The notes under the pieces: generated by a model | Seen by the model: the letters and a program-made list of their open reading frames with translations, nothing else | Database searches by the model: none | What the model was told of the DNA's origin: nothing | In this document: positions 7,189 through 61,381 of the stretch, piece by piece | Position numbering within the stretch: the stretch's first letter is position 1 | Layout: the number at the start of each line of letters is the position of its first letter | Made by a program: the position numbers and the translations under genes | Source of the DNA: an uncultured Flavobacteriales bacterium | GTDB taxonomy: Bacteria; Bacteroidota; Bacteroidia; Flavobacteriales; BACL11 | Assembly (NCBI GenBank): GCA_905478765.1 | Contig: CAJQJY010000014.1 | Span: forward strand, 47,605-111,604 | Length of the DNA stretch: 64,000 nucleotides | Reading direction: 5' to 3'

Positions 7189-7295
7189 GTTTAGTTGTAG
7201 ATTTTATACTGCAAATAAACGAAAATATTTGTTAATAGCAACGCCTAGGTTAAAATGAGCTCAAAACAGGATGTTGTGGTGGAAGTTATCAACAA

Positions 7296-7322: not shown

Positions 7323-7362
7323 TTTATTCGTATATTAGCACCCAGATTTAAACAAGAACAAA

Positions 7363-39313: not shown

Positions 39314-40165
39314 ATGAAAGAAGAATTAAGTTTAAGAGAAATAATTAATGAGGTGATTATCTTTTTTATTAATTTTAAAACATTGATAATTGTAATTACC
39401 TTCGTTGGAACTTTAGGTGTTATTGTTTTTCAAAAGATACGACCAGCTTATTACAATACTACTTCTATTGCAACTTCAGGTATCTCTGCTTTTGAAAGAA
39501 TTGAAGATGAGAAGGAGGTTTTGAACCAAAGGACAGCAATAAATCTTATTAATACTCTTGATCTAGATGTTCAGAAAGAAGATTTCATTGTTCTTGGAGA
39601 AAAATTAAATATATCGATGGAAAAAGCAGCTTCCATCAAGAGTATAAACGCAACTCAAATATTTAGAAAAGATCAGGATGGGAAAGACTTTAATACACCT
39701 AAATTTGAAATACTTTTAACTGTAAAAGATAATGGGATTATTAAGAATATTGAAGAAGGATTATTGCATTATTTTAATTCTAATCAATATATACATTCCT
39801 ATTATGATTACTTTAAACTTACAAATGATAATGAAATAATAGCGATTGATAGTGAGATAGAAAGTTTGCAGAAATTTAGATCAGATAAGGGTTCTAATAT
39901 TGATATGAGTTCTTTTAATTTATATTCAAAAAAAGGATTAACTGAGGTGCAAAATCAGATTATTGAACTAAATCAGCTAAAATCAATTAACGCGACAAAT
40001 CAAATGTTACTTAAGCCACTATCATTTGTTCAAGGATTTACAATTTCTCAAACACCAGAAAGAGGTGTTTTACTTTTAGGTTCTTTAGCGTTTGTGATAT
40101 CTTTTATAGTTGCTATAATAGTTGCTGTTTTTGTAAATGTTAAACAAAAATTAAACATTAAATAA
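39314..40165 (+). CDS. Wzz-like polysaccharide chain-length determinant (PCP) protein, no kinase domain
   Basis: 283 aa. N-terminal EELSLREII motif plus TM helix, long periplasmic-type middle region, C-terminal TM (LLLGSLAFVISFIVAIIVAVF). This is the PCP-1 topology. Confidence 0.5.
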   Translation: MKEELSLREIINEVIIFFINFKTLIIVITFVGTLGVIVFQKIRPAYYNTTSIATSGISAFERIEDEKEVLNQRTAINLINTLDLDVQKEDFIVLGEKLNISMEKAASIKSINATQIFRKDQDGKDFNTPKFEILLTVKDNGIIKNIEEGLLHYFNSNQYIHSYYDYFKLTNDNEIIAIDSEIESLQKFRSDKGSNIDMSSFNLYSKKGLTEVQNQIIELNQLKSINATNQMLLKPLSFVQGFTISQTPERGVLLLGSLAFVISFIVAIIVAVFVNVKQKLNIK

Positions 40166-41491: not shown

Positions 41492-42766
41492 ATGTTTAAA
41501 TCATATGTCTTAAAATCAAAATCGATTATTGATTTTTTTTATATGTTTATTTCTAACATAATTAAGAAGAGTTTTGGTTTTGTTAGAGAAATAATTCTTG
41601 CTTATTTCTTTGGATCTTCAATGGTTTATGCTAATTTTTTGCTACTTAAAACTGCCGCTGACTTGTTTTCTCAATTAACCCAAGGTAGTGCGCTTCAGGC
41701 AAGTTTGCTGTCCAATTTTTCAAGTTTATATGACAAAGGACATAAAGTTTCATTATCAAATGTTCTAGTTTTCTCTAAGAATTTAGCATGGAAAATATTT
41801 TTAGTAAGTCAAATTATTCAAATACCATTAGTGTTTTATATTTCTCCTGAAAATTTCTGGTTATTTATAATGATATCTCTGGTGCTAGGATTAGTGGTAT
41901 CTTCTAATTTTTTTAGTTCCATTTTTTTAATTGTGATCCAAGGAAAAGGTGATTTTAAGAAATTTTCTATCTCAACAGCTGTAGATATTTTTGTATCAAC
42001 AGTTTTGTTGTATCCCCTCTCCTTAATGTTTGGTGTGGTTGGTATTGCTGTCAGTAGAGCTATAGGTCTAGGTGTTTTAATATATAAATACTTTACACCA
42101 ATTTTTAATGAGACAGAAGGATATAAAATCGGTTTTGGAATGAAAGATATAAATTTGTCAATTATGCTTCTTGGTAATTTTGCAAATATAATAATGTTTC
42201 TATCACGCTTTGTTGTAGGTTTAGATGCTGGAAATAGTATTACATTTTTTAATTATTCTATTGTGTTGTTAAATGTATTCCTAACGGCAATAATTATGAA
42301 TGTCAATACTATTGTTTTAAGAAGATTGTCAGTTAAAAAAGAAGTAAAGTTAATAGTATTTTCTTTTTTAATTTCATTAGGTCTTGGGTTAATTCTAGTT
42401 TTTGGTGTTGAAGTATATGGGTTAAGTATTATTAAATTCATTTTTGAAAGAGGTGCTTTTACTTCTGAAGATACCGTGTTAACTTATGAATTTGCTAAAG
42501 ACTTAAGTATTAGTTTTATTTTTATTTTTATTGCTTCAGCTTTGTTTCAACCCTTCTTTAGTATTGATCAAAAATTAATAAGAAGGGAGAGTAGTGTTAT
42601 GGCGAGTATTTTAGTGCTTAGTACTCTAGTATTGTTTGTGATTTTTTCTTTTACAACTACATCTGCAAGAGAAAATTCTTTGATTATGATTTACTCTTTA
42701 TCTTTTTTAAGTGTGGTTTTAGCATCTTATTCGTCATATAAATATTTTACAATTAAAACTATATAA
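41492..42766 (+). CDS. MurJ/MviN-like MOP-superfamily flippase (short form)
   Basis: Polytopic 424-aa protein. The N-terminus FGFVREIILAYFFGSS resembles the MurJ signature. Confidence 0.55.
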   Translation: MFKSYVLKSKSIIDFFYMFISNIIKKSFGFVREIILAYFFGSSMVYANFLLLKTAADLFSQLTQGSALQASLLSNFSSLYDKGHKVSLSNVLVFSKNLAWKIFLVSQIIQIPLVFYISPENFWLFIMISLVLGLVVSSNFFSSIFLIVIQGKGDFKKFSISTAVDIFVSTVLLYPLSLMFGVVGIAVSRAIGLGVLIYKYFTPIFNETEGYKIGFGMKDINLSIMLLGNFANIIMFLSRFVVGLDAGNSITFFNYSIVLLNVFLTAIIMNVNTIVLRRLSVKKEVKLIVFSFLISLGLGLILVFGVEVYGLSIIKFIFERGAFTSEDTVLTYEFAKDLSISFIFIFIASALFQPFFSIDQKLIRRESSVMASILVLSTLVLFVIFSFTTTSARENSLIMIYSLSFLSVVLASYSSYKYFTIKTI

Positions 42767-43776: not shown

Positions 43777-44598
43777 ATGATGAATAATTGGTTAAAATAT
43801 AATGGCTCAATAATTCCATCATCGCCTCCACATATTATGGTTACGGAGTCTAAAGTAGAAATTCAAAAATTACTTGTAAGTAGTAGATCTTTTTTTGCAA
43901 GGTGGGTTTCAAATTTTGATGCATCTATAGATTCTTCTTTTTGGTATGTAATTAATGATAAGGCTTTAGAAATCGAAGATTATAGTAAAAATACCAGGAG
44001 TAAGATCAGGAGAGGATTGAAGAATTTTGTTGTGAAAAAGATTGAAAAATCTGAGTTAATTAATCATGGTTATCAAGTTTATGTTGCCGCTTTTAAAAGG
44101 TATAAAACAATTAATAAGCCAATGAGTAGTAAAAAGTTCATTAAGCATATCAATAGCTTAGATAAGGGTTGGGAGTTTTGGGGAGTTTATTCAAGAGAAA
44201 CTGATGAATTGATTGCTTATAGTCAAAATAAGATTGTAACTGACCAATGTTATTACTCAACTATTAAGTTTCATGAAAAATACTTGAAAATGTACTCTAG
44301 TTATGCTCTTTATTTTGCAATGAATAGTTATTACTTAAAAGAAAGAAAATTAAAATATGTAAATGAAGGCACAAGAAGTATTTTACATGAAACAAATGTT
44401 CAATCTTTTTTAATTGATAAATTTAAATTTAGAAAAGCTTATTGTAAATTACACGTTCAATATCATCCTTTAGTCACTCCAATTATTTTTGTTTTGTATC
44501 CTTTTAGGAAAATCATTGTTAAAAGTAATTTATTGTTTTTTAGAAAAATTGGAGTAGTTTTATCTCAAGAAAAATTGCGTAGAAATCCTAATGAATAG
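43777..44598 (+). CDS. hypothetical protein, possibly FemAB/BioF2-like GNAT acyltransferase
   Basis: 273 aa, soluble. Segments TRSKIRRGLKN and SFLIDKFKFRKAY resemble FemAB-like GNAT families. Weak recognition by eye only. Confidence 0.3.
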   Translation: MMNNWLKYNGSIIPSSPPHIMVTESKVEIQKLLVSSRSFFARWVSNFDASIDSSFWYVINDKALEIEDYSKNTRSKIRRGLKNFVVKKIEKSELINHGYQVYVAAFKRYKTINKPMSSKKFIKHINSLDKGWEFWGVYSRETDELIAYSQNKIVTDQCYYSTIKFHEKYLKMYSSYALYFAMNSYYLKERKLKYVNEGTRSILHETNVQSFLIDKFKFRKAYCKLHVQYHPLVTPIIFVLYPFRKIIVKSNLLFFRKIGVVLSQEKLRRNPNE

Positions 44599-45340
44599 TT
44601 TAGTTTCCATAATAACTCCATCTTATAATTCCTCAAAATTTATTATGGAATGTATTGCTTCAGTTTTTTCTCAAACGTATACAAATTGGGAAATGATTAT
44701 TGTAGATGATTGTTCTAAAGATAATTCAAAAAAAATAATTAAAGAACTTGCAGTTAAAGATAAAAGAATTAAGCCAATCTTTTTAGAAAAAAATGTTGGT
44801 GCTGCTAAGGCCAGAAATGTTGCAATTAGACAAGCAAAAGGAAAATATGTTGCCTTTTTAGATTCAGATGATTTATGGAATCCTAAAAAATTAGAAAAAC
44901 AACTCTCTTTTATGTGTGAAAATGACATAGCTTTTTCTTATACAAATTATCAGTTTATGTCCGAAAATGGTGCCAATCTATCAAATATCATTTTAGCTCC
45001 TAAAAAGATGACTTACGATTCATATTTGAAAAATACTATTATTGGTTGTTTGACCGTTATTGTTGATAGAGAGAAATCTGGTGAATTTGAAATGCCAAAT
45101 ATCCGTTCTTCTCATGATATGGCTCTTTGGTTGTTAATTATGAAAAGAGGTTTCTATGCTTACGGATTAGATGAGAATCTTGCAAGATATAGAATTGTCT
45201 CAACATCAAATACCGCTAGTAAATGGCATGCAGCAAAGGATGTTTGGAAAGTATATAGGCATGTTGAAAAGTTATCATTTACATATAGTGCTTGGTGTTT
45301 TTTTTGGTATGCTTTTAATGCATTAAAAAAAAGAATATAA
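44591..45340 (+). CDS. family 2 glycosyltransferase
   Basis: VSIITPSYNSSKFI...SQTY..WEMIIVDDCSKDNS and DSDD motif (FLDSDDLW). Confidence 0.85.
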   Translation: MNSLVSIITPSYNSSKFIMECIASVFSQTYTNWEMIIVDDCSKDNSKKIIKELAVKDKRIKPIFLEKNVGAAKARNVAIRQAKGKYVAFLDSDDLWNPKKLEKQLSFMCENDIAFSYTNYQFMSENGANLSNIILAPKKMTYDSYLKNTIIGCLTVIVDREKSGEFEMPNIRSSHDMALWLLIMKRGFYAYGLDENLARYRIVSTSNTASKWHAAKDVWKVYRHVEKLSFTYSAWCFFWYAFNALKKRI

Positions 45341-45924
45341 TGAAAAGAGTCTTTGATTTTTTAGTTTCCCTTATGGGATTATTTTTATTCACCCCATTGC
45401 TTGTATTGTTATCATTGCTAATTAAATTTACTTCTAAAGGAACCATATTTTTTATTCAGGAAAGAGTTGGAGAGAATGGAGTTTTTTTTAAGATGATTAA
45501 GTTTAGAAGTATGCAAATGATTCAGGATTCAGATATTACAATATCAGTGAAGGGTGATATGAGAGTTACTAAAGTTGGTTCATTTCTGAGAAGATATAAA
45601 TTAGATGAATTGCCTGAGTTATGGAATGTTTTAGTTGGGGATATGAGTTTGGTTGGACCAAGGCCGGATGTGCCTGGATATGCTGATTTTCTGAAAGGAG
45701 AAGATAGAAATATCCTAAAATTGAAGCCTGGAATTACTGGTCCTGCAAGTTTAAAATATGCTAATGAGGAAGAAATATTATCAAGACAGGAGAATCCTAA
45801 AGAATATAATGATGAGATAATTTACCCAGATAAAGTCAGAATCAATTTAGATTATTACTATCAATCTAACTTATGGATTGATATTAAAATTATATTTGCG
45901 ACAATATTTAGAAATTCGTATTAG
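45340..45924 (+). CDS. small monotopic phosphoglycosyl transferase (PglC/WcfS-like initiating sugar transferase)
   Basis: 194 aa. KRVFDFLVSLMGL re-entrant helix, KFRSM, DELPELWNVLVGDMSLVGPRP. Confidence 0.85.
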   Translation: MKRVFDFLVSLMGLFLFTPLLVLLSLLIKFTSKGTIFFIQERVGENGVFFKMIKFRSMQMIQDSDITISVKGDMRVTKVGSFLRRYKLDELPELWNVLVGDMSLVGPRPDVPGYADFLKGEDRNILKLKPGITGPASLKYANEEEILSRQENPKEYNDEIIYPDKVRINLDYYYQSNLWIDIKIIFATIFRNSY

Positions 45925-47057
45925 TGAAAGATAATAAAAAAATATGGTTAGCCTCACCACATATGGGAGGAGATGAGTTGAGATTTGTAAAAGAGACATT
46001 TGATACGAATTGGATTGCTCCTATTGGTCCGCATATAAATACTTTTGAAGAACAACTTTCTAAAATCTCAAATGGATATAAGGTAGCGGCATTAAGCAGC
46101 GGAACTGCCTCAATTCATTTAGCTTTGATTTTAGCTGGAGTCAAAGCTAATGATGATGTGATTTGTTCTACTTTTACCTTTTCAGCATCAGCAAATCCAA
46201 TTAAATATTTGGGTGCAAATCCAGTCTTTATTGATAGTGAATCCTTGAGTTGGAATATGTGCCCTGAACTTTTGGAAAAATCAATAGTTGAAGGAATTGA
46301 AAAAAATAAAAAACCAAAAGCAATTATTTTGGTTCATCTATATGGGATGCCTGCAAAAATGGATGTGATAATGGAAATTTCCAATCAATATGATATTCCT
46401 TTGATTGAGGATGCTGCTGAGGCACTTGGCTCAACATACAAAAACCAGCCTTTAGGGACATTTGGTAAGTTTGGTGTTTATTCTTTTAATGGAAATAAGA
46501 TAATAACAACATCAGCAGGTGGAGCTTTACTTTGTAAGGATAAGAGTTTGATTAAAAAAGCAAAATTTTTTGCTACTCAATCCAGGGATAATGCTCCCCA
46601 TTATGAACATTCTGAAATTGGATATAACTACAGAATGAGTAATGTGTGTGCTGCTATTGGATTAGGTCAATTAGAAGTGTTATCTGATAGAGTAAGACGA
46701 AAAAGAGAAATTTATAATTTTTATAAAACTGAACTTTCTGGAATTAAAGAGATTACTTTTTTATATGAAAGTATAGGTAGTTTTTCTAATTATTGGCTAA
46801 CAACAATTTTACTTGATAAAAATAGCACAATAGATAGAGAACAATTGCGTTTGCATCTGGAAAAAGATAATATTGAGAGTCGTCCATTATGGAATCCAAT
46901 GCATTTGCAACCAGTATTTAAAAATTGTAAAGCATATGTAAATGGAGTCTCTGGTGATTTATTTAATAGAGGATTATGCTTGCCTTCTGGAACCAATATT
47001 TCTAATAAGGATTTAAAAAGAGTAGTTAATAAAATAAAAGAATTATATGAAGCTTAG
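45924..47057 (+). CDS. DegT/DnrJ/EryC1/StrS-family sugar aminotransferase (PglE/WcfR-like)
   Basis: PLP-Lys context FNGNKIITTSAGGAL and N-terminal ASPHMGGDELRFVKETF..NWIAPIGP. GTG start overlaps the upstream stop. Confidence 0.85.
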   Translation: MKDNKKIWLASPHMGGDELRFVKETFDTNWIAPIGPHINTFEEQLSKISNGYKVAALSSGTASIHLALILAGVKANDDVICSTFTFSASANPIKYLGANPVFIDSESLSWNMCPELLEKSIVEGIEKNKKPKAIILVHLYGMPAKMDVIMEISNQYDIPLIEDAAEALGSTYKNQPLGTFGKFGVYSFNGNKIITTSAGGALLCKDKSLIKKAKFFATQSRDNAPHYEHSEIGYNYRMSNVCAAIGLGQLEVLSDRVRRKREIYNFYKTELSGIKEITFLYESIGSFSNYWLTTILLDKNSTIDREQLRLHLEKDNIESRPLWNPMHLQPVFKNCKAYVNGVSGDLFNRGLCLPSGTNISNKDLKRVVNKIKELYEA

Positions 47058-48900
47058 ACTTCAAAATCTGCAGCGAATTTACAAGCAAATTATCATGTTG
47101 ATTGTTGATGTTCTGACTTTATTTTTAGCTTTGTGGTTAGCTTTTGTTTTACGATTAGGTGAGGCCTATCCTGTAGAATATCTTCTTCCATCATGGTGGT
47201 TGTTTCTTGTAATACCAATAATAATGATGCCGCTTTTTGTGAAGTTAGGCTTATATCGTGCAGTTTTGCAATATATTGGAATTAATGTTATAACTACAAC
47301 TTTTAAAGCTACAACCATTTCGTGTTTAATTGTAGGGTTTTTTATGATGTTTTTTCGTGAATCAAATTTACCAAGATCAGTGTTGCCAATATTTTGGTTT
47401 ATAATAAATATCTTTATTATTTCAAGTCGTTTCTTGTTTAAGGGTTATTTGTATTCTTGGGATAGTTTTGTAAATTCTAGAAAACAGACTATTATCTATG
47501 GAGCGGGAAATGCAGGAGTTCAGCTCATTGAAAGTTTGAAAAAAAGCTCTGTTTATGCGCCAATTGCCTTTATTGATGATGATAAAACAAAACAGGGTAC
47601 TATTCTTAATTTTTTAGAGGTTTTCCCATACAGTTCAATTGAGAATCTTATTAAAAATAAAGAAGCAAAAGTTTTGCTTTTAGCTGTTCCTTCTGCAAAT
47701 GTAAAACAAAGAACACAAATACTAAAGAAATTATCAAAACACCCTATTGAGGTTAAAATTTTGCCTTCAATGGACAATATAGTAAATGGGGTAGTTTCTA
47801 TTGATAATATAAAACATGTTGAAGTTGGTGATATCTTGGGAAGAACAGTAGTTTCTCCAAAGAAAGATTTGCTAAAAAGAAATATTTCAGGAAAAAATAT
47901 TTTGATTACTGGCGCTGGAGGAAGTATTGGTTCTGAGCTGTCAAGACAGATCATGAAACTTTCTCCAAATAAGGTTGTGCTGTTAGATAACTCAGAATTT
48001 AATTTATACAATATACATTTAGAGCTTGTTAGTAAAGATTTTTCAATTGATTTGATTCCATCACTTTGTACGGTTACAAATTACCATCAGTTGAAGAAGA
48101 TTACTGAAATGAATAAGATTGATACAATTTATCATGCGGCCGCCTATAAGCATGTTCCTATGGTTGAAATGAATGTTGTTTCTGGAACCTATAATAATGT
48201 TGTTGGGACTTTTAATGTCGCAAAAGTTGCTGATGAATTAAATTTGGAAAATTTAGTTCTTGTTTCTACAGATAAAGCAGTCCGACCTACAAATGTGATG
48301 GGAGCCTCAAAGAGAATGTCAGAATTAGTATTACAAGCATTTTCTGAGAAAAGCAACACATGTTTTTCAATGGTTCGTTTTGGTAATGTATTAAATTCTG
48401 CTGGTTCAGTAGTGCCTCTGTTCAGAAATCAAATAAAAAAAGGAGGACCTGTTACTGTAACTCATAGAAATATTACAAGATATTTTATGTCAATCCCAGA
48501 AGCAGTTGAGCTGGTTATACAATCAGGAGCTATGGCAAAAGGAGGTGATGTTTTTGTTTTAGATATGGGGGAGCCAATTAAAATTATTGATTTAGCTTAT
48601 AAAATGATTCATCTAAGTGGGCTTACACCTATTGATAATGAAAACCCTGATGGAGATATAAGAGTAGAATTTACTGGACTTAGACCTGGGGAAAAATTAT
48701 ATGAAGAGTTATTGATTGGAAATGATGTAGTTCAATCAGAACATCCCAGGATTATGCAAGCTAAAGAAAGTAAATTATCAATGCAAGACATACTATATTG
48801 TATCGGTCTTATTAAATCCTCTAGAGAAGGTCAGGATGAAAAGGTTGTTAAAGAACTCTTGTTGAAATATGTTGATGGTTACACATCAGAAGTAGTATAA
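47047..48900 (+). CDS. membrane-anchored UDP-HexNAc 4,6-dehydratase (CapD/PglF/WbpM family)
   Basis: Four N-terminal TM helices followed by an SDR domain (ILITGAGGSIGSEL, YKHVP, STDKAVRPTNVMGASK). Confidence 0.85.
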   Translation: MKLRLQNLQRIYKQIIMLIVDVLTLFLALWLAFVLRLGEAYPVEYLLPSWWLFLVIPIIMMPLFVKLGLYRAVLQYIGINVITTTFKATTISCLIVGFFMMFFRESNLPRSVLPIFWFIINIFIISSRFLFKGYLYSWDSFVNSRKQTIIYGAGNAGVQLIESLKKSSVYAPIAFIDDDKTKQGTILNFLEVFPYSSIENLIKNKEAKVLLLAVPSANVKQRTQILKKLSKHPIEVKILPSMDNIVNGVVSIDNIKHVEVGDILGRTVVSPKKDLLKRNISGKNILITGAGGSIGSELSRQIMKLSPNKVVLLDNSEFNLYNIHLELVSKDFSIDLIPSLCTVTNYHQLKKITEMNKIDTIYHAAAYKHVPMVEMNVVSGTYNNVVGTFNVAKVADELNLENLVLVSTDKAVRPTNVMGASKRMSELVLQAFSEKSNTCFSMVRFGNVLNSAGSVVPLFRNQIKKGGPVTVTHRNITRYFMSIPEAVELVIQSGAMAKGGDVFVLDMGEPIKIIDLAYKMIHLSGLTPIDNENPDGDIRVEFTGLRPGEKLYEELLIGNDVVQSEHPRIMQAKESKLSMQDILYCIGLIKSSREGQDEKVVKELLLKYVDGYTSEVV

Positions 48901-48918
48901 TCCTGTTATTTTTGTAAA

Positions 48919-50283
48919 ATGAATATTATTGTACTAGGAGCAGGTGCATTTGGAACAGCTATTGCTAATGAACTTTCAGTAAATACTGAAAATAATGCAG
49001 TATTGTTTTCCAGAAACAAAGAGAAAGTTGAAGAGATTAATTTACACAATACTAATCAATCTTGTTTCCCTAACAAACATCTTACAAAGCATCTACGGGC
49101 TTCTTTTGATAAAAAGGAAATTCAAAGAGCAGATGTTATTTTTATTGCATTGCCATCACCTATTATTATAGAGTATCTAAAAAAATTAAGACCGTACTTT
49201 TCAAAAAGTGTACTGCTTGTTAATTTATCGAAAGGATTATTAGAAAATGGAGTAACAATAGTAGATAGAGTAAAGATAGAGTTAAATACTGAGAATGTTG
49301 TTGCATTAAAAGGGCCTTCTTTTGCGGTTGAGATTATGGAACATGCAGATACATTGTTAACTCTTGGTTATTCAACAAGAGAACAATATGAAATTATCAA
49401 TAAAATAATTATTGACACTGCATTGCATATTGATTGTACAACTGATATTAGGGGTGTTGAGGTTCTTAGTGTTCTAAAAAATATTTATGCTTTAGTTTTG
49501 GGTATTGTAGATGCAAAATACAATTCTCCTAATACTCGTTTTATGATATTAACTAAAGCATTTTCAGAAGTTAGGGTATTGTTAAGGGCATTGGGTGGTG
49601 CTCACGACACTTTGTTCTTGGCTTGTGGTTTTGGTGATTTATGCTTAACATCACTTAACGATTTGAGTAGAAACAGAACTTTAGGATTGTTAATTGGAAA
49701 AGGCTTTTTTAATGCTGATTATAAATCAAATTCTGTGATTTTGGAGGGATTGAAAGCAGTTGATTTAGTTCATAGTTTTCCATTGGATCATGTTATGGAT
49801 ACTTTACCTTTATTAAATAAGTTACATTCGTTTTTTGGGAGTAAGGAAAATGTACTTTCAATACAGTTTGATAAGCTAGTAGACCAAAAGTTTAAAACTG
49901 TTTTGACTTATGGTACTTTTGATTTATTACATTATGGACATCTTGAAATATTAAGAAGAGCAAGTTCACTAGGAGATAAATTAATAGTTGGAATTTCAAC
50001 TGATGAATTTAATGAGTTGAAAGGCAAAACGTGTATTTTGCCATACGAGAAAAGAAAAGAGCTATTAGAATCACTTGATTATGTTGACAAAGTAATTCCA
50101 GAAGATAATTGGGAACAAAAAGTTTCAGATGTTAAAGAAAATGATGTAGATATTTTTGTAATGGGAAATGACTGGGAAGGAAAATTTGATGAATTAAAAG
50201 CTTATTGTAAAGTGATATATTTTCCAAGAACAAAGGGCATCTCAACAACTAAATTAAAGTCAATTTTAAAAGAAGAAGAGTAA
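48919..50283 (+). CDS. fusion protein: NAD(P)-dependent glycerol-3-phosphate dehydrogenase (GpsA-like) plus glycerol-3-phosphate cytidylyltransferase (TagD-like)
   Basis: N-terminal Rossmann IIVLGAGAFGTAIANEL and a GpsA-like body (~320 aa). The C-terminal ~129 aa carry TYGTFDLLHYGHLEILRRA, ISTDEFN and RTKGISTT, closely resembling B. subtilis TagD as I recall it. Continuous ORF. Confidence 0.8.
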   Translation: MNIIVLGAGAFGTAIANELSVNTENNAVLFSRNKEKVEEINLHNTNQSCFPNKHLTKHLRASFDKKEIQRADVIFIALPSPIIIEYLKKLRPYFSKSVLLVNLSKGLLENGVTIVDRVKIELNTENVVALKGPSFAVEIMEHADTLLTLGYSTREQYEIINKIIIDTALHIDCTTDIRGVEVLSVLKNIYALVLGIVDAKYNSPNTRFMILTKAFSEVRVLLRALGGAHDTLFLACGFGDLCLTSLNDLSRNRTLGLLIGKGFFNADYKSNSVILEGLKAVDLVHSFPLDHVMDTLPLLNKLHSFFGSKENVLSIQFDKLVDQKFKTVLTYGTFDLLHYGHLEILRRASSLGDKLIVGISTDEFNELKGKTCILPYEKRKELLESLDYVDKVIPEDNWEQKVSDVKENDVDIFVMGNDWEGKFDELKAYCKVIYFPRTKGISTTKLKSILKEEE

Positions 50284-50290
50284 GCTATTA

Positions 50291-51553
50291 ATGAAAATTG
50301 ATGCTGAAATAATTAATAAAGAGGATTTTAAAACAATTCTTAATAATTTTTTTTCACTTACATTGCTTAAGGTATTGACCTATATTTTACCTTTAATTAC
50401 GTTTCCATATTTAATTAGAGTATTAGGGGTAGAAAAATTTGGGCTTATTATGTTTGCTCAGGCAACAATGTATTATTTTGAGATTGTCGTTGATTTTGGG
50501 TTTAATCTTTCAGCTACTAGAGAGGTTGCTTTAAATGCTAAAAAAGTAAATAAATTAAATGAGATTATTAGTGCTGTATTTAGTATTAAGTGTTTTTTAT
50601 TAATCATTTCCTTTTTAATTTTATTTATAGTGCTTAGTATTTTTGATCGCTTCACAGATGATTATTTAATTTATTATTATTCCTTTTTAAAAGTAATTGC
50701 CATTACTTTTTTTCCAGTTTGGTTTTTTCAAGGAATAGAGAAAATGAAATATGTAACTTACATTAACATCGTTTCTAAATCCATATATACAGTTCTGATA
50801 TTTGTGTTTATTCAAACTGAATCAGATTATCTGTTGGTGCCTTTAATTAATGGTTTTGGTTTTTTTATTGGAAGCCTATTAGCTTTGTATTATGTATTTA
50901 AGCATTTTAAGCATGTTTTTGTGTTTAATTCTTTCGCAATAATTAAACAGCATTTTATAGATAGTTCTATGTTCTTTTTATCTAGAGTTTCTGTATCGCT
51001 ATATACTTCTAGTAACACTTTTGTACTGGGTCTAGTAGCAAGTAATCTTACGGTAGGTTATTATGCAATAGCAGAAAAATTATATATGGTTATTCGCCAA
51101 CTATATCAGCCAATTGTACAGGTGATTTATCCATATATTTCTAAAAGTAAGAATTTGGTTTTTTTCAAGAAGCTATATCCAGTAGTTGTATTACTAAATT
51201 TTATTGGAGTTTATATTCTTTGGGTTTTTGCTCCTGAGCTGATTTATTTGGTATCCAAGGAATATTTTTTAGAATCTATTAAAGTATTTAGGATTTTACT
51301 TGTTGTATCATGTATTGTTGTTCCCTCTATTTTAATTGGTTATCCATTTTTGGCTGCTTTAGGATTTAAAAATGAAGCAAATTATAGTACAATTATTGGT
51401 TCTCTTTTTCATGTAGTTATTTTAGGTATTTTATATTTTAGTAATCTGATAAATATGTATAATATAGTTTACTTGCTGTTAGCAACTGAGTCGATTGTTC
51501 TGTTATATAGATATTATGCAGTATATAAAAATAAACTTTTTCAAATCGCCTGA
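50291..51553 (+). CDS. Wzx-type oligosaccharide flippase (polysaccharide biosynthesis protein family)
   Basis: 420-aa polytopic protein with N-terminal LKVLTYILPLITFPYLIRVLGVEKFG, typical of Wzx/RfbX flippases. Confidence 0.7.
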   Translation: MKIDAEIINKEDFKTILNNFFSLTLLKVLTYILPLITFPYLIRVLGVEKFGLIMFAQATMYYFEIVVDFGFNLSATREVALNAKKVNKLNEIISAVFSIKCFLLIISFLILFIVLSIFDRFTDDYLIYYYSFLKVIAITFFPVWFFQGIEKMKYVTYINIVSKSIYTVLIFVFIQTESDYLLVPLINGFGFFIGSLLALYYVFKHFKHVFVFNSFAIIKQHFIDSSMFFLSRVSVSLYTSSNTFVLGLVASNLTVGYYAIAEKLYMVIRQLYQPIVQVIYPYISKSKNLVFFKKLYPVVVLLNFIGVYILWVFAPELIYLVSKEYFLESIKVFRILLVVSCIVVPSILIGYPFLAALGFKNEANYSTIIGSLFHVVILGILYFSNLINMYNIVYLLLATESIVLLYRYYAVYKNKLFQIA

Positions 51554-51554
51554 C

Positions 51555-52775
51555 ATGATAAAGAAATATATTAAGTACTTGCCTAAAATATTGAATCCTT
51601 TAATGTATATTATTTATTGTTTAGTATATTTTATTCCTAGAAATAAGAAAAATTGGGTTTTTGGTTCTGGAGTAGGATTAAATTTTAGCGATAATGCAAA
51701 ATATTTATTTTTGTATTGTACTTCTTTACCGGAAATTAATTCTTTTTGGATAACAAGAAATAAGACTTTGGTAGAAAACTTAAGGAGTGAAGGGTTAAAA
51801 GCATATTATAAATATAGCTTAAAGGGTTTATGGTTAAGTATTTCATCTAAGGTATATGTATATGATTCTCGGACAGGAAGTATTAATCATTGGGTCTCAG
51901 CAGGAGCTCTTAGAGTAAATCTTTGGCATGGGTCACCATTAAAAACAATTGACAGAGACATTACGGTTAAGCATAATGCATTTTATATTGGTAATCATAC
52001 TTGGGGTCCAAAACGATATCTTGTAAGGATGATGATGCCAGAATGGTTTGTGGTGGCTGATTTAATGATAGCTACTTCTGATAAAGTAAAAGGTTATTTT
52101 AAGTCAGCTTTTGGCTCGGAAAAAATTGAGGTCACAGGCTATCCCAGGAATGATATTGTTATCAATCCTAATTTGTATGCAAGACATTTGGGATTTGAAC
52201 AACAAATTATTGAATCTATTACTACTGAAAAAACAATTTTGTATGCACCTACTTTTCGTGATACAAATCGTTTTGCTAGAGAAACTCCAATTGAATGGGA
52301 AAAGTTAAATAATTTATTAATAAAACAAAATGCTACTTTTCTAATTAAATTACATAGGCATGATTACTCTATGGTAATGAAAGAAGAGTATAGTAATATT
52401 AGAGTGTTAGATAATGAAAGTGATATGTACCCATTATTTACTAAAGTTGATCTTTTAATCACAGATTACTCATCTATTTTCTTTGATTTCTTATTAACAG
52501 ATAAACCAGTATTGTTTTACCCTTATGATAAAGATGAATATCTGAATATGGACCGCTCTATGTATGATGATTATGACACAGTAACACCAGGTTATAAGGC
52601 TTATGATTATTCTGATTTTCATAAAAAGTTAGAATTGTTTTTTGAACAGCCAAATGCATTAAAGGAAGGTGATTTAGATTATCAGAAAATTAAGAAAATG
52701 TATAATAAGTATAGTGATTTCAATGGTGCAAAGCGTACTTATGAGTTTATTAATTCAAACCTATATAGTTTTTGA
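51555..52775 (+). CDS. CDP-glycerol glycerophosphotransferase (TagB/TagF family)
   Basis: Start trimmed to the ATG at 51555, directly after the upstream stop. YAPTFRD motif, KLHRHD and ITDYSSIFFDF segments are typical of the Glyphos_transf family. Confidence 0.7.
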   Translation: MIKKYIKYLPKILNPLMYIIYCLVYFIPRNKKNWVFGSGVGLNFSDNAKYLFLYCTSLPEINSFWITRNKTLVENLRSEGLKAYYKYSLKGLWLSISSKVYVYDSRTGSINHWVSAGALRVNLWHGSPLKTIDRDITVKHNAFYIGNHTWGPKRYLVRMMMPEWFVVADLMIATSDKVKGYFKSAFGSEKIEVTGYPRNDIVINPNLYARHLGFEQQIIESITTEKTILYAPTFRDTNRFARETPIEWEKLNNLLIKQNATFLIKLHRHDYSMVMKEEYSNIRVLDNESDMYPLFTKVDLLITDYSSIFFDFLLTDKPVLFYPYDKDEYLNMDRSMYDDYDTVTPGYKAYDYSDFHKKLELFFEQPNALKEGDLDYQKIKKMYNKYSDFNGAKRTYEFINSNLYSF

Positions 52776-54073
52776 GGCAAGGATTAAAAAATAGAATTGT
52801 TTCAGAATTATATTTCTTAATACTATTATTCCCCATTTGGTGGATTCTAGGCATGGAACAATTTATTTGGGTCATCTCAGTTGGCTTGATTTTTATACAA
52901 TTTTTAATATATAGCAAATTTCAATTTAAAATGAATATTCTTGGATTATTGTTGTTATTTTTCCTTGTGATCTATGGGATTTCATTTATTAGCATTACTG
53001 AGAAAATGAGATATATAACCTATTTTAGAAACTTGAGCACCTATCTAACAGCTTTTATGCTTGTTATTGTAGTGTGGAATATTGTTGATGAATGGTGGCA
53101 GGTTGAGAAATTATTAGGGGCTATTATTTTTGTAATGCTGATAGCATCTATTGTTGGAGTTTTAGCTTTCATATTCGATTCATTTAGAGTTAGATTTAAA
53201 TCATTGGCAGGTTTTTTTATGCCCTCATCAATATCAAGTACAGGTTATGGAAGTGTAATTGCTATTAGAAATGTAGGTTTTTATAATTGGTTTATTGGTT
53301 TGGGTGAGTATTTTAGGGTCAGTTCCTTTTTTTTGTATTCAACTATGTTTTCTTCTACATTAGCAATTGTATTACCAATTGCAATGTTTCTTAAAAAAAT
53401 AAACATTGGTATAAAAAAAACTTACTTTACAATAGTAGTTATAATTATGGGTTTAGCGCTTTTAGCTACAACAGGGCGTGTTGCAATATTAGCAATATTT
53501 ATTGCGTATTTTATTTTTAAATTTCTCTCTATTAAGAATTTTAGTATTCGTTTTTCTATTATTGCTTTTTCTTTTTTCTTTATCTTACTATCTTTACTTT
53601 GGCTTGAACAAACTGGATTACTTTATCAGATTATTGATTTTGCTTTATATTCAAGGGGTAAAGGTAGTGCAAACGCAAGGTCTAAAATATATATTCAAAC
53701 CTTTGAAGGTTTTTTAGAACGACCAATTTTTGGATGGGGAACTGAAAGAGATGTTAAGGGCTTAGCATATCCATTAGGATCCCATAGTTATTATCTTGGG
53801 ACGTTATATAAACAAGGTGTGGCTGGTTTAATATTGTTTTTAAGCATTTTTGCAAATGTTTGGACTAATATTAAAGTTAAGAATAATTTAAATTACCGGG
53901 TTTCTTTATTTTACAGATATGGTCAATTTATGTTATTAGTATTTCTTATTAATAGCTTTACAGATGTTTTAGATTTAGATGCAACTACTATGATGTTTTT
54001 ATGGGTTATTATTGCACTCTTAACTGTTTCTAAAAGATTATCTACTAATCCCCAAAATCAATTCAATGATTAA
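52772..54073 (+). CDS. O-antigen polymerase/ligase-like (Wzy_C-type) membrane protein
   Basis: 433-aa polytopic protein with a TGRVAILAIFIAYF segment and a large loop (YSRGKGSANARSKIY...WGTERD). The TTG start is uncertain. Confidence 0.55.
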   Translation: MRQGLKNRIVSELYFLILLFPIWWILGMEQFIWVISVGLIFIQFLIYSKFQFKMNILGLLLLFFLVIYGISFISITEKMRYITYFRNLSTYLTAFMLVIVVWNIVDEWWQVEKLLGAIIFVMLIASIVGVLAFIFDSFRVRFKSLAGFFMPSSISSTGYGSVIAIRNVGFYNWFIGLGEYFRVSSFFLYSTMFSSTLAIVLPIAMFLKKINIGIKKTYFTIVVIIMGLALLATTGRVAILAIFIAYFIFKFLSIKNFSIRFSIIAFSFFFILLSLLWLEQTGLLYQIIDFALYSRGKGSANARSKIYIQTFEGFLERPIFGWGTERDVKGLAYPLGSHSYYLGTLYKQGVAGLILFLSIFANVWTNIKVKNNLNYRVSLFYRYGQFMLLVFLINSFTDVLDLDATTMMFLWVIIALLTVSKRLSTNPQNQFND

Positions 54074-54737
54074 TCTTATTGTTAGAGATAAAAGTTCAAA
54101 AAGACCAACTACTTTCTTAAATCCATTTTCATATATTGTTGCAAGGAGAAATATTAAACACCTAAGCCAGTTTAATATTGAAATTGATGGAGGGATGTTA
54201 GTGGTAGTTTTAAGATTTTTTGGCATTAGAGTTAAAAGGAAAAGTTTTGATATGACTTCTTTAGCACCTCTTGTTTTTGAAAATGCAATTAAGAATAATC
54301 AATCAGTTTTTTTTATAGGCACTAAACCAAAAGTTATTGACGTGGCTATTCAGAATATTCAGAATCAATTTCCTGAGTTAAATATTTGTGGTTATAGAGA
54401 TGGATATATGTCAATTGAAGAAAGAGAATCGGTGCTTACAAAAGTTAAGAGTCTTAATCCGTATTTTGTCATTTGTGGTATGGGAGCCCCTTTGCAAGAG
54501 CAATTCCTGATTGATCTGAAAAATATTGGATGGGTTGGAAAAGGGTATACATGTGGCGGGTTCTTGCATCAAACTGCTGATGGAATCGAGTATTATCCTA
54601 AGTGGATAACTGAATTTGGTTTAAGGGCTTTTTATAGAATGTATGATGAGCCTCAGTTATTAAAAAGATATTTTATCAACTATCCTATTGCAATGATTGT
54701 GATTGTATATGACTTGATTAAGTATAAAATGAGTTAG
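54066..54737 (+). CDS. WecG/TagA/CpsF-family (GT26) glycosyltransferase
   Basis: FFIGTKPKVIDVAIQNIQNQFPELNICGYRDGY ... ICGMGAPLQEQF pattern of GT26. Confidence 0.8.
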   Translation: MINLIVRDKSSKRPTTFLNPFSYIVARRNIKHLSQFNIEIDGGMLVVVLRFFGIRVKRKSFDMTSLAPLVFENAIKNNQSVFFIGTKPKVIDVAIQNIQNQFPELNICGYRDGYMSIEERESVLTKVKSLNPYFVICGMGAPLQEQFLIDLKNIGWVGKGYTCGGFLHQTADGIEYYPKWITEFGLRAFYRMYDEPQLLKRYFINYPIAMIVIVYDLIKYKMS

Positions 54738-56998: not shown

Positions 56999-58384
56999 AT
57001 GAAAGGTTATTCTAAATATTTTTGGTTCATACATTTTATTGGTGATATTTTATGTATTAATATTGCTTTTATCTTAATGTATTATCTAAAGTTTGATTCT
57101 TTTGATTTTTCAGATAAGTATCGTTTTTTAATAATTATTTTCAATGCGAACTGGATACTAGTTGCATTGATGCTAAAGCTTTATGAGTTGAATAGAATCA
57201 TGAGGTTAGATAAAGTTTTGTTCAATCTTTTTAAAGCATTTGGATTTAACATTTTAGTAATTACAGCTGTTCTTTTTTCTTTAAAACAATCTCAATTTTC
57301 AAGAGAACATTTGTACGCAACATACTTAATATTATTTGGGTTAATTATGTTTTGGAGATATTTGTCAATTAAGTTAATTAGACTTTACAGAAAATCAGGA
57401 TATAACTATAGGAGGGTTGTTATAGTTGGAGGAGGAGAAGTAGCTCAACAATTAAATGACTATTTTAATTCTGATGATGTTTTAGGAGTAAGGTTGCTAG
57501 GTGTATTCACCGATTCTGACTTATCTTTTGGTATAAAGGATAGTGTAAAAACTGGTACATTAGATAGTTTAGAGCAGTTTGCATTAAAAAATGATATTGA
57601 TGAGATTTTCTATACTATGCCTTTAACATATACTAAAAAAATTAAAGGATTAGTTGATTTCTGTGATAGATACATGATAAGGTTTAAAGTAGTTCCTGAT
57701 TTTAGAGGGTTTATATTTAAACGTGTAAACATTGATTTTTTTAATGATGTACCAGTTATTACTTTAAGAGAAGAGCCTCTTACGGATTTTATTAATAGAT
57801 TTACAAAAAGAGTATTTGATTTGATATTCTCATTACTTACTGTTGTTTTTGTGTTGAGTTGGTTGTATCCTATTATAGCTGTATTAATTAAATTGTCATC
57901 AAAGGGACCTGTTCTGTTTAAGCAATCTCGTTCTGGAGTAAATAATGAAGAATTTTTGTGTTATAAATTTCGCTCAATGACAATGAGTGAAGAAGCTGAT
58001 ACTAAACAAGCTACAAAAGGTGACGTGAGAATAACAAAGATTGGAGCATTTTTAAGAAAATCATCTTTGGATGAGTTTCCACAGTTTTTTAATGTACTTA
58101 TGGGGGATATGTCCATTGTTGGGCCTAGGCCACATATGCTAAAACATACAGAAGAATACTCTGAGTTGATACAAAAATATATGGTAAGGCAATTGGTAAA
58201 GCCCGGTATAACTGGGGCTGCTCAAGTAAAAGGGTATAGAGGAGAAACTAAAGAATTGGAAGATATGGAGGGGCGTGTGCGTTTAGATGTTTGGTATATC
58301 GAGAACTGGTCATTGTCATTGGATATAAATATAATATTTTATACGGTTTGGAATGTTTTTAAAGGTGATGAAAAAGCATATTAA
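56999..58384 (+). CDS. large polyprenyl-phosphate hexose-1-phosphate transferase (WbaP/WcaJ family)
   Basis: N-terminal TM bundle, central Rossmann-like domain (VVIVGGGEVAQQL) and a C-terminal sugar-transferase domain (KFRSM, DEFPQFFNVLMGDMSIVGPRP). Confidence 0.85.
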   Translation: MKGYSKYFWFIHFIGDILCINIAFILMYYLKFDSFDFSDKYRFLIIIFNANWILVALMLKLYELNRIMRLDKVLFNLFKAFGFNILVITAVLFSLKQSQFSREHLYATYLILFGLIMFWRYLSIKLIRLYRKSGYNYRRVVIVGGGEVAQQLNDYFNSDDVLGVRLLGVFTDSDLSFGIKDSVKTGTLDSLEQFALKNDIDEIFYTMPLTYTKKIKGLVDFCDRYMIRFKVVPDFRGFIFKRVNIDFFNDVPVITLREEPLTDFINRFTKRVFDLIFSLLTVVFVLSWLYPIIAVLIKLSSKGPVLFKQSRSGVNNEEFLCYKFRSMTMSEEADTKQATKGDVRITKIGAFLRKSSLDEFPQFFNVLMGDMSIVGPRPHMLKHTEEYSELIQKYMVRQLVKPGITGAAQVKGYRGETKELEDMEGRVRLDVWYIENWSLSLDINIIFYTVWNVFKGDEKAY

Positions 58385-59783
58385 ATTACTTATTTTAGTT
58401 TTCTTTCCTTTTTGTTTGATTGGTCAGATTTCTAGCTTTAAACCTTATCCATATACACAATTCTCAAACTACTTTTTAGATACGATTACTTCTTATGATT
58501 CTGATATAAATCAGCATATTGAGTTAGGCTCAAGAATCAACTCTAAGATTAATTATCGTGATAATAAGATGTATAGTAGTTTACTTTTAGGTAAAGTTTT
58601 TTCAGCTAATCTTAAAAATAAGATTACACTTAATTCTAATCTCGATCATCTAATTGGAGATTTCCATCCATTAAATCAGCATCTTGCTGATTCTCTAGAT
58701 TTATATTTCCCTACTTATGGAGATAAAAGGTTTAGATGGCAATTTAATTTAAAGTATAAGGTAAATAAATTTATAACTGCAGATTTTGGAAAAGGCAGGC
58801 ATTTTATTGGAAATGGTTATCGTTCACTTTTATTGTCTGCTAATCATACCCCTTACCCTTACTTAAGATTGACAACAGAATTCGGTAGAGTTAAGTACTA
58901 TAATTTATATACAACTTTCTTAAATCCTAATCAAAGTGATTTTGGAAGAAAGAAACATTCAACTATTCATTTTTTAGATTTTGCTATAACTGAGAATATT
59001 CACTTTGGAGTTTTTGAAAGTATTTTATGGCAATCAAAATCAGAAGAAGTTAATAAAGGCTTTGAGTTTGCTTATCTTAATCCTATCATTTTTTATCGTC
59101 CGGTGGAGTTTTCAAAACAATCTAGTAAAGGTAATGCTTTGATGGGCGCTAATTTTAATGCTACGTTCAATACAACTCTTATATATGGGCAGGCAGTGCT
59201 TGATGATATTAATATTTCACGCCAAAAAGATAGTGATGTAGAAGATTATGAAGAAGGGTTTTTTCAAAATAAGTTTGGGTTTCAGATTGGAGTACAAACT
59301 AAATATAAAGGAGTTGATTTATTAGCTGAGTACAATCAAGTCCAACCTTATACTTATGGGCATAGAACAATATTGCAAAATTATTCTCATATGAACGAAG
59401 CTTTAGCTCATCCTTTGGGAGCCAATTTTAAGGAAGTAGTTTTGGTGGCCAATTATAAAAAAGATAAATGGATGTATAGCATTAAAGTTACAACTTCAAA
59501 AGTAGGTTTGGATTCGTTAGACACTCATTATGGACAGAATATCTTTGAATCAGATTATGAAGCAAGTACAGGGGGTCAATATTCTTATGGGAACTATAAC
59601 GGGCAAGGGTTTTTAACTCAACTAAACACTATGTATGCTGAAATCTCTTATGATTATAAAGGGTTTGATATTTTTTGTTCATTATTCTATAAAAGTAAGA
59701 AGTCTGAACTATTAGATCAGACTTCTTACTTTTATTCATTAGGATTGAGGACTTTTCCATTCTCAACATTCACTGATTATTAA
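58368..59783 (+). CDS. predicted outer-membrane beta-barrel protein, possibly Wzi-like capsule-assembly family
   Basis: Start trimmed to the ATG at 58368 (MKKHIKLLILVFFPFCLIGQ signal peptide). Alternating beta-strand-like sequence and an aromatic C-terminus (FTDY). Last gene of the glycan locus. The family call is tentative. Confidence 0.4.
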   Translation: MKKHIKLLILVFFPFCLIGQISSFKPYPYTQFSNYFLDTITSYDSDINQHIELGSRINSKINYRDNKMYSSLLLGKVFSANLKNKITLNSNLDHLIGDFHPLNQHLADSLDLYFPTYGDKRFRWQFNLKYKVNKFITADFGKGRHFIGNGYRSLLLSANHTPYPYLRLTTEFGRVKYYNLYTTFLNPNQSDFGRKKHSTIHFLDFAITENIHFGVFESILWQSKSEEVNKGFEFAYLNPIIFYRPVEFSKQSSKGNALMGANFNATFNTTLIYGQAVLDDINISRQKDSDVEDYEEGFFQNKFGFQIGVQTKYKGVDLLAEYNQVQPYTYGHRTILQNYSHMNEALAHPLGANFKEVVLVANYKKDKWMYSIKVTTSKVGLDSLDTHYGQNIFESDYEASTGGQYSYGNYNGQGFLTQLNTMYAEISYDYKGFDIFCSLFYKSKKSELLDQTSYFYSLGLRTFPFSTFTDY

Positions 59784-61381
59784 AATTCTAATTTCTCTCC
59801 ATCTTTATAAGCAACTATAAAGCTGTTAGTATACCCTTTCCTTCTCATTTCTTCTTGGAATTCCTCTGCCTCATCTAAGCTATAAAATAGCCCAGCTAAA
59901 TAAGCTGTTTTTCTCTCATCAATAGGGATTGTAATTACATGCTCTTCATTAAATAATGATACTGGAGTATCAAAATCTCCGAAAGTACCAAGGTTTAGCC
60001 TAAAGATATAAGGAGCGCCTCCTTGTGCTATTTGATCTTCCTTGCTGAATGAGCGCATTAAGTTATCTCGTGCTTTGAGGTAAGATTTGTGAATATTAAG
60101 AGCTTTTTTATCTTCTCCTTCATTTTTATAGATGTAAATTAAATTCTCATAAGCAGGTAAGAATAATCTTTCTTGTTTTATTGATTTTTTAAATAGTTTT
60201 ATGGCTTCTTTTAAATTTAAAGAAGAGGCAGTTGTGTGTTTTACACTACCATCTCTGTTTTTACGAGCAGATCTTGCTGAAAAATCAGCATAAGCAACAG
60301 CCAAATTATATGTCCATTTTTGATTGCTGTAAATTTTTGATGTGATTGCTTTTAAGTATCTTTTAGCTTGACCTAGCCCTCTTTTATCTTGCAACGCAAG
60401 GTAAGAAATTGCTAAATTTGCTCTAGAGAAGTTTAGCCCATCTTCAGATATTTTTCCTCTTTTCAATCTTTTTTCTGCATTTTTAAGATTCTTTTGAGCT
60501 GATTTATATTCTTTTTTAGCAAGAGCTTTGGCTCCTAAATTATACTCTCCAATCCCTTCTTGAATTTGAATCATACTTCTTTCATCAATTTTACTCACTT
60601 TATCAAACTGTAAGTGATCATCCTTTTTTATAATTTGTAAATTAGTTACATCTGCTTTTTTTCCTCTAGGAACAATAGCTCTTTTAATGTTATTAGTTTT
60701 AGCAACATCCTTTACTTGAGATTTTGTTTTTTTATTTTTTCTATCAAGTTTTTCAATAGCTGTTTGCATTCTATCATTAACTCTGTTTGCATCATCATCA
60801 TTTCCAGAATTTCTATAAAGTGCTTCCAGAGTTATAAATGCTTGAAAGTCAAATTCAGCTTTACGAATTAAGGCACTTAATAATGAAGCGGCTTCATTTT
60901 GATTTCCTGAAAAATAATGGCCCATAGCAATATTATAAGTCCAATTATTATCATTAAAAGCCTTTGATGTAATTAAATTTAAATATCTATTTGCTACTGC
61001 TAGATCCTCTCTATTTCCTGTTTTTGCATAAGAAAGAGCCATATTTGCATGTATGTAGTTTAGGGCATCTGGAGTTAATTTTGCTCTTTTGTAGCGCTTC
61101 ATTGCTGCCTTAAACTCAATTAAAGCTGCATCATATTCTTTATTTTCCATCAAATTAAAAGCAGCAACATAATGCTCTTCAGCTTTCTTTGTTTGGTCAA
61201 TAGTTCTCTTAGTAATGTCTTTTTGATTTTCGTATTGCAAAATCTTTTCTACATCAGATATAGGTTTCCATTCAAAGGCCGTAATTCCATCTGTATATGA
61301 GGTGTCAATAGCTGAGATAGTTGCGAAAATATTTGTCGTAAATACGATTAGAGCTATTGAAAGTATGATTCTTTTTATCAT
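59780..61381 (-). CDS. TPR-repeat protein with C-terminal SPOR-like peptidoglycan-binding domain
   Basis: Signal peptide, two duplicated ~115-aa TPR-like modules, and a C-terminal ~75 aa (YIFRLNLGTFGDF...YLAGLFYSLDEAEEFQEEMRRKGYTNSFIVAY) resembling SPOR. Confidence 0.6.
   Translation of the reverse strand: MIKRIILSIALIVFTTNIFATISAIDTSYTDGITAFEWKPISDVEKILQYENQKDITKRTIDQTKKAEEHYVAAFNLMENKEYDAALIEFKAAMKRYKRAKLTPDALNYIHANMALSYAKTGNREDLAVANRYLNLITSKAFNDNNWTYNIAMGHYFSGNQNEAASLLSALIRKAEFDFQAFITLEALYRNSGNDDDANRVNDRMQTAIEKLDRKNKKTKSQVKDVAKTNNIKRAIVPRGKKADVTNLQIIKKDDHLQFDKVSKIDERSMIQIQEGIGEYNLGAKALAKKEYKSAQKNLKNAEKRLKRGKISEDGLNFSRANLAISYLALQDKRGLGQAKRYLKAITSKIYSNQKWTYNLAVAYADFSARSARKNRDGSVKHTTASSLNLKEAIKLFKKSIKQERLFLPAYENLIYIYKNEGEDKKALNIHKSYLKARDNLMRSFSKEDQIAQGGAPYIFRLNLGTFGDFDTPVSLFNEEHVITIPIDERKTAYLAGLFYSLDEAEEFQEEMRRKGYTNSFIVAYKDGEKLEF

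Follow-up and report, generated by a model that had tools for sequence, protein, structure and literature searches.

The locus considered here raises the question of whether two enzymes that act in succession, the dehydrogenase GpsA and the cytidylyltransferase TagD, are truly encoded by a single gene and, if so, which pathways that gene supplies. It lies in a stretch of 64,000 nucleotides (hereafter, the window) from an uncultured Flavobacteriales bacterium (contig CAJQJY010000014.1, positions 47,605 to 111,604), whose SprB repeats and type IX secretion system sorting domain at 61424-63820 place it in Bacteroidota. A sequence-only reading of the window had proposed an in-frame fusion leading from dihydroxyacetone phosphate (DHAP) to cytidine diphosphate glycerol (CDP-glycerol) in one polypeptide, inside a locus for a glycan containing glycerol phosphate (GroP), with a supply of sn-glycerol-3-phosphate (G3P) independent of the phospholipid pool. 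The first of these claims holds. The fusion is a real in-frame gene with a complete GpsA followed by a complete TagD, so that the reductase and the cytidylyltransferase for consecutive steps stand on one chain:

48919-50283, plus strand: GpsA-TagD fusion gene, a single open reading frame (ORF) of 454 amino acids (aa) without internal stop
48919-49890, plus strand: GpsA half, residues 1-324, with PF01210 and PF07479 matches
49891-49893, plus strand: junction codon, F325, at a position occupied by Met in several other fused lineages
49894-50283, plus strand: TagD half, residues 326-454, and the stop codon, identified by TIGR01518 and by alignment to 1COZ and 2B7L

Each half is matched by family profiles and by solved structures. 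In the N-terminal half, NAD_Gly3P_dh_N (PF01210) covers residues 3-154 with 103.5 bits against a cut-off of 23.1, NAD_Gly3P_dh_C (PF07479) covers residues 176-309 with 93 bits (cut-off 25) and PF20618 scores 58.5 bits (cut-off 27.6), while residues 3-305 match the GpsA structure 3K96 in the PDB (E 1.5e-30). In the C-terminal half, CTP_transf_like (PF01467) spans residues 329-447 with 88.6 bits, far over its gathering score, and the NCBIfam model TIGR01518 (g3p_cytidyltrns) gives 176 bits, above the equivalog cut-off of 165.4, which assigns this half to the glycerol-3-phosphate type. Residues 326-450 match the TagD/TarD structures 1COZ (Bacillus subtilis) and 2B7L (Staphylococcus aureus) end to end (E 3e-48), ethanolamine- and choline-phosphate cytidylyltransferase structures being weaker matches. 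The motifs and coordinates quoted in the sequence-only reading are all present and correct.

The residues expected of both active sites are also in place. The GpsA half carries the Rossmann GxGxxG motif as GAGAFG at residues 7-12. In the Leishmania glycerol-3-phosphate dehydrogenase (1EVY), the residues that we take to be catalytic or substrate-binding are K125, K210, D263, T267 and R274; by alignment they correspond to K105, K187, D240, T244 and R251 of the fusion, all of them kept, and N188 stands beside K187 in the catalytic set. Aligned to 1COZ and 2B7L, the TagD half shows HYGH at 338-341 (H338, H341), K368 and K370 (K44 and K46 of B. subtilis TagD), W398 and RTKGISTT at 437-444, the RTxGISTT motif. 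Across 39 fused homologues with identities down to 49%, none of the residues listed for the two halves falls below 90% conservation, and those of the TagD-half motifs are invariant. An AlphaFold2 (AF2) model built on the homologue alignment folds both domains, with a mean predicted local distance difference test score of 83.8 and a predicted TM-score of 0.72; its low-confidence stretches are residues 237-249 (the GFGDLCLT substrate-motif segment), 270-275, 443-446 (the end of RTxGISTT) and the last three residues.

The two halves meet without a linker (D322 Q323 K324 F325, then K326 T327 V328), and the Met found at the junction of other fused lineages is probably a relic of the old TagD initiator. 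An assembly or sequencing artefact that joined two neighbouring genes would have to be common to many unrelated data sets. In a collection of 5.8 billion proteins, with assemblies from ENA, JGI, Tara, Logan and NCBI, all of the 120 best-scoring clusters at 90% identity hold both halves in one ORF, mostly of 451-456 aa, and the five shorter entries among them (344-425 aa) look truncated. The segment 49500-50300 is furthermore covered, with 0 differences and 0 gaps, by contigs of three DNA-type runs, which belong to three studies (2018, 2024 and 2025); these runs may include the source sample, and the many independent assemblies are the stronger support. Contigs from an RNA library (X15) cover both gene halves, and none of them bridges 49850-49960. 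With an identical ORF and junction in more than 100 independent clusters and in cultured isolates, an artefact has a negligible probability, and the earlier statement that the junction contains neither stop nor frameshift is borne out.

The same searches show how widespread the architecture is. It is present in full length in Pareuzebyella sediminis, two Winogradskyella species, Aestuariibaculum marinum and Mariniflexile rhizosphaerae, and also in metagenome-assembled genomes (MAGs) of Flavobacteriales and Chitinophagaceae; the fusion is common in Bacteroidota. It is already in public databases, under-annotated, as the public records name one half only, for example 'glycerol-3-phosphate cytidylyltransferase' in A. 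marinum, M. rhizosphaerae and Flavobacteriaceae MAGs. A full-text literature search found no paper describing a GpsA-TagD fusion. One apparent fusion from Saccharibacteria (L045) was rejected, as it consists of two neighbouring, unfused genes, and one 1-Mb Saccharibacteria MAG holds two separate copies of this adjacent pair:

L045:5980-6990 and 7000-7404: gpsA and tagD of one Saccharibacteria pair
L119:946-1968 and 1977-2375: gpsA and tagD of another Saccharibacteria pair

What the gene supplies depends on which other sources of G3P the cell has. The genome that contains the window (1.61 Mb, 20 contigs, 98.6% complete) has PF07479 matches in the fusion gene alone; beyond that gene, PF01210 exceeds its cut-off only in two 3-hydroxyacyl-CoA dehydrogenases and in the product of the UDP-glucose dehydrogenase gene at 40167 of the window. 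Canonical GpsA queries from genomes of the same family recover only the fusion in tblastn, at 24-28% identity. Candidates for a second GpsA, two frames of contig 2 with 325 aa (weak PF01210) and 393 aa, proved to be 3-hydroxybutyryl-CoA dehydrogenases, and a candidate second TagD on contig 12 is RfaE domain II. The genome encodes PlsY (181.7 bits), the enzyme that acylates G3P, and searches for GlpK, GDPD/GlpQ and GlpT found none of them. Apart from the fusion, it has no GpsA homologue and no recognisable source of G3P. Because PlsY needs G3P, with no other GpsA and no salvage route found, the fusion probably also feeds membrane phospholipid synthesis. A clean deletion scar of canonical gpsA was considered and rejected: orthologues of the genes that flank it elsewhere (queries from genomes G026 and G036, ~87-92% identity) lie on contig C4 at 9026-9940 and 16364-17718, separated by 6.4 kb that contain no gpsA, and their orientation to each other has changed.

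The 61 related genomes compared have at most one PF07479 match each, and these matches form two score classes. A canonical class (147-167 bits) occurs in the other families of the order and, within the window's family, in three genera; a divergent class (92-106 bits) occurs in eight genera of that family. Some members of the divergent class are standalone, with open frames of 323-335 aa, and the others are fused, with 455-460 aa, the fused forms being those of G000, G006 and G009, from the same genus, and of G022, from another genus. Two further genomes of the same genus, G008 (closed) and G015 (two contigs), have exactly one GpsA each, standalone, together with PlsY. The GpsA half of the fusion (residues 1-324) shares 74-75% identity with standalone gpsA products of the same genus, and fused orthologues are 77-81% identical among themselves. 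In 10 of 11 loci compared within the family, gpsA, fused or standalone, directly follows the Polysacc_synt_2 dehydratase of a conserved block (G006, G007, G008, G009, G015, G016, G023, G028, G030 and L040; in the G030 block, the gene for the family 2 glycosyltransferase (GT2) gave no match). Only G022 departs from this order: its dehydratase is found ~5 kb upstream of the fusion, and the remaining block lies beyond the fetched stretch. Given this common position after the conserved block, the fusion and the standalone gpsA of same-genus genomes are syntenic orthologues. The proposal that the gene supplies G3P independently of the phospholipid pool finds no support here: it is the only GpsA in a genome with PlsY, and it occupies the place where closed same-genus genomes have their one standalone gpsA.

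Divergent TagD-like cytidylyltransferases were also observed in two genomes with standalone gpsA. They score 94-102 bits, below the TIGR01518 cut-off, share 41% identity with the window's TagD half and may have a different substrate specificity:

L035 (G030), tblastn match 9401-9847, minus strand: divergent TagD-like ORF of 150 aa, ~5 kb from gpsA
L129:6331-6741 (G015, contig 1), minus strand: divergent TagD-like gene, in the same range of 94-102 bits

The second pathway, that of the surface glycan, is indicated by the neighbourhood. The fusion lies inside a co-directional glycan locus in which Pfam recognises, upstream, the UDP-glucose dehydrogenase, an EpsG-like protein, a GT2, a small Bac_transf protein, a DegT aminotransferase and the Polysacc_synt_2 dehydratase and, downstream, Wzx, a PF04464 transferase, Wzy, WecG/TagA, gmd, fcl and a large Bac_transf protein. 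The main features are:

43777-48900, plus strand: conserved upstream block of an unnamed ORF, GT2, small Bac_transf, DegT aminotransferase and Polysacc_synt_2 dehydratase (Pfam, synteny)
50291-51553, plus strand: Wzx-type flippase (Polysacc_synt, Pfam)
51495-52775, plus strand: TagF/TagB-like CDP-glycerol glycerophosphotransferase (PF04464, 187.6 bits), whose real start is probably downstream of the listed TTG
52772-54073, plus strand: Wzy-like polymerase, part of the cassette that accompanies the fusion
54066-54737, plus strand: WecG/TagA-family transferase, part of the same cassette

The PF04464 transferase thus sits between Wzx and Wzy, two genes 3' of the fusion. Among the relatives, G006, G009 and G022 carry a TagF-like gene next to the fused gene, and no standalone gpsA locus has one at its side; the cassette of TagD with TagF-like, Wzy and WecG genes is present in fused genomes only, and the window's type of Wzx in G006 only. 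Because this transferase adjoins Wzx and Wzy and accompanies the fused form alone, the product of the locus is very likely a GroP-bearing Wzx/Wzy glycan repeat unit, and on this point the sequence-only reading is upheld.

Two side observations concern the locus itself. A TAnnTTTG box (window 48907-48921) stands 4 nt 5' of the ATG of the fusion and recurs, with the same spacing, before standalone tagD genes of G003, G010 and G026, which would fit an internal promoter of Bacteroidota type that travels with the gene. In or beside the locus there are also five ORFs of 273-533 aa without a Pfam family at E 1e-4, of which the one at 43777-44598 heads the block before gpsA and is conserved across the family:

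39314-40165, plus strand: ORF without a Pfam family
41492-42766, plus strand: ORF without a Pfam family
43777-44598, plus strand: ORF without a Pfam family, at the head of the conserved block
58353-59783, plus strand: ORF without a Pfam family
59780-61381, minus strand: ORF without a Pfam family

The history of the gene was approached through a quick maximum-likelihood tree built from 101 rows of the GpsA domain. In it, canonical gpsA of Flavobacteriales stands apart as a clade of its own (support 100), and the GpsA half of the window's fusion, on a long branch away from that clade, falls in a clade of 19 fused and 12 standalone sequences (support 99). All Bacteroidota fusions examined have the same linker-free junction, and this common feature favours a single origin by loss of the gpsA stop codon. 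Clostridia-type fusions (L044:532-2010 on the plus strand, P0136 and P0236) have a linker of ~50-60 residues and a clade of their own (support 100), and for these reasons represent an independent origin. In one of them, P0236, the HxGH of the cytidylyltransferase half is replaced, and that half may be catalytically dead.

A third form of the gene was observed in G003, G010 and G026, where a standalone tagD of 138 aa consists of the first four residues of the fusion, the last residues of its GpsA half and TagD (in G003, residues 2-4 differ from those of the fusion). These genes share their 5' DNA with the fusion and are followed by the same TagF-like gene; judging by these remnants, they are apparently fusion derivatives from which the GpsA domain was deleted in frame. 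G026 has a canonical gpsA, and its tagD lies just 3' of a gene with an MnmE-like FCIGK tail, outside the glycan block. Their positions are:

L125:1069-1485, plus strand: standalone tagD of G003
L126:6941-7357, minus strand: standalone tagD of G010
L127:6790-7206, minus strand: standalone tagD of G026

Fused, TagD-less and GpsA-deleted alleles therefore coexist within one family. In the simplest model, a Bacteroidota ancestor would have carried both a canonical gpsA and the fusion, the latter born once when gpsA lost its stop codon before an abutting tagD, and reciprocal loss would have followed. TagD would have been lost in lineages that exchanged the downstream glycan cassette, and the GpsA domain would have been deleted in frame in lineages that retained canonical gpsA. 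In the streamlined lineage of the window it was most likely the canonical gpsA that was lost, since larger Flavobacteriaceae keep it beside the fusion: P. sediminis and the two Winogradskyella genomes contain a canonical gpsA (162-165 bits) in addition. That reciprocal loss of paralogues turned a surface-glycan fusion into the sole G3P source of a clade of streamlined marine flavobacteria is a scenario towards which we lean only slightly.

These larger genomes also differ in what follows the fusion, a LicD-family gene in place of the window's TagF-like gene. In P. sediminis and Winogradskyella eckloniae the fusion overlaps the start of the LicD-family gene, and the two form a module outside the large glycan loci. 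No PF04464 transferase was found in these two genomes, and their user of CDP-glycerol is probably a LicD-type GroP transferase:

L039:7353-8078, plus strand: LicD-family gene of P. sediminis, overlapping the fusion
L043:7352-8083, plus strand: LicD-family gene of W. eckloniae, overlapping the fusion

These other Bacteroidota fusions have the architecture and junction of the window's gene, 49-62% identity to it, and form one clade with it. Outside the phylum, the same two reactions are carried out by members of the same protein families in B. subtilis and S. aureus, as separate GpsA (EC 1.1.1.94) and TagD/TarD (EC 2.7.7.39); solved structures are 1COZ, 1N1D and 2B7L for TagD/TarD, and 3K96 and 1Z82 for GpsA. 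The TagD half aligns with these enzymes over its whole length, with HxGH, the two Lys and RTxGISTT conserved, but here the activities stand on one linker-free polypeptide with a divergent Bacteroidota GpsA half, and the product would go to the Wzx/Wzy glycan of a diderm instead of wall teichoic acid. In its manner of working, the closest analogue is the Bcs1-type CDP-ribitol synthase, which is non-homologous. Bcs1 combines an IspD-type cytidylyltransferase with a short-chain reductase, in a domain order opposite to that of GpsA-TagD. Pfam detects neither an IspD nor a short-chain dehydrogenase/reductase family in the fusion protein, only the PF01467, PF01210 and PF07479 types, and the substrate is a triose phosphate as opposed to the pentulose phosphate of Bcs1. 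What Bcs1 (Haemophilus influenzae) and TarI/TarJ (S. aureus; Pereira & Brown 2004, as cited in PMC10918830 and PMC4017328) share with the fusion is an alditol-phosphate reductase joined to its cytidylyltransferase, with reduction first.

From all this, the reading that we regard as reasonably likely is that of a bifunctional CDP-glycerol synthase with a single fusion origin and later losses, in a genome that lost canonical gpsA and whose GpsA domain also feeds PlsY. The GpsA domain would reduce DHAP with NAD(P)H to G3P, the TagD domain would convert G3P and cytidine triphosphate into CDP-glycerol, and the neighbouring TagF-like transferase would place glycerol phosphate from CDP-glycerol on the repeat unit made by Wzx/Wzy. 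The two active sites would be independent, free G3P being released rather than wholly channelled, and the GpsA domain would in this way also serve as the G3P source for PlsY-dependent phospholipid synthesis.

Several points weigh against this proposal. The GpsA half scores under every NCBIfam GpsA cut-off (best NF000942, 191.4 bits against 257), and the catalytic activities of all family members are predictions from sequence. The genome is a draft of 20 contigs, and one of its gaps might in principle hide a canonical gpsA, but the closed same-genus genomes argue against it; an unrecognised G3P importer or salvage route is possible. GpsA was not found in G014 (96% complete), G027 (95%) and G043 (98%), which reflects either an assembly gap at a variable island or a dispensable GpsA. 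In G020, a MAG rated as 100% complete, gpsA is cut by a contig end after residue 85 (C6:4-258, minus strand), and absences of gpsA from MAGs at this variable island are therefore unreliable. Finally, the tree is compatible either with repeated loss of TagD or with its recombinational gain, and the direction of change is inferred.

Of the alternatives, a dedicated glycan enzyme that channels G3P into CDP-glycerol, insulated from phospholipid synthesis, would agree with two active sites on one chain without a linker, and the coexisting canonical gpsA makes such a role plausible in larger Flavobacteriaceae; the picture of a dedicated second copy fits genomes such as those of Pareuzebyella and Winogradskyella. 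For the window's own genome it is unlikely, as PlsY needs G3P that neither another GpsA nor a salvage route was found to provide, and the analogous H. influenzae CDP-ribitol synthase acts, by the title of the report, 'without substrate channeling' (Zolli et al. 2001, cited in PMC10918830 and PMC4017328). The low NCBIfam scores, the long branch away from canonical gpsA and the labelling of relatives by NCBI as 'glycerol-3-phosphate cytidylyltransferase' only could all suggest that the GpsA half is degenerate, structural or specific for another substrate, with only TagD active and G3P coming from elsewhere. Yet GxGxxG and the five mapped catalytic or substrate residues are kept across the clade, AF2 folds the domain confidently and standalone members of the clade are the only GpsA of closed genomes with PlsY, all of which makes degeneration rather improbable. 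The HxGH fold is common to ethanolamine- and choline-phosphate enzymes, and the TagD half might accordingly be thought to activate glycerol-2-phosphate, ribitol-5-phosphate, phosphoethanolamine or phosphocholine. This is very unlikely in view of the score above the TIGR01518 equivalog cut-off, the full-length match to TagD/TarD with K44, K46 and RTxGISTT kept, and the position of this half between a G3P-forming enzyme and, downstream, a PF04464 CDP-glycerol transferase.

The fusion provides a 'Rosetta stone' link between GpsA and TagD and would be the glycerol counterpart of the characterised CDP-ribitol synthase. What is new here is that a streamlined genome has it as its sole GpsA. This speaks against a separate G3P pool and makes the gene a natural case for testing whether the intermediate of a fused two-step enzyme is set free. 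Under the one-sided annotation now in use, metabolic reconstructions of abundant marine flavobacteria would wrongly lack gpsA and show phospholipid synthesis as incomplete. For the enzymatic synthesis of GroP-containing glycans, a single protein leading from DHAP to CDP-glycerol could also be of use. With its fused, TagD-less and GpsA-deleted alleles, this one locus makes a compact case of domain gain and loss by cassette exchange and streamlining. If the bifunctional, dual-role reading is right, fused TagD and PlsY would be in direct competition for the G3P made beside TagD, and sister lineages would represent the other outcomes, in which TagD was lost or the GpsA domain was deleted in frame where canonical gpsA survives. 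Membrane phospholipid synthesis in these bacteria would then hang on a gene at the edge of a hypervariable, recombining glycan island.

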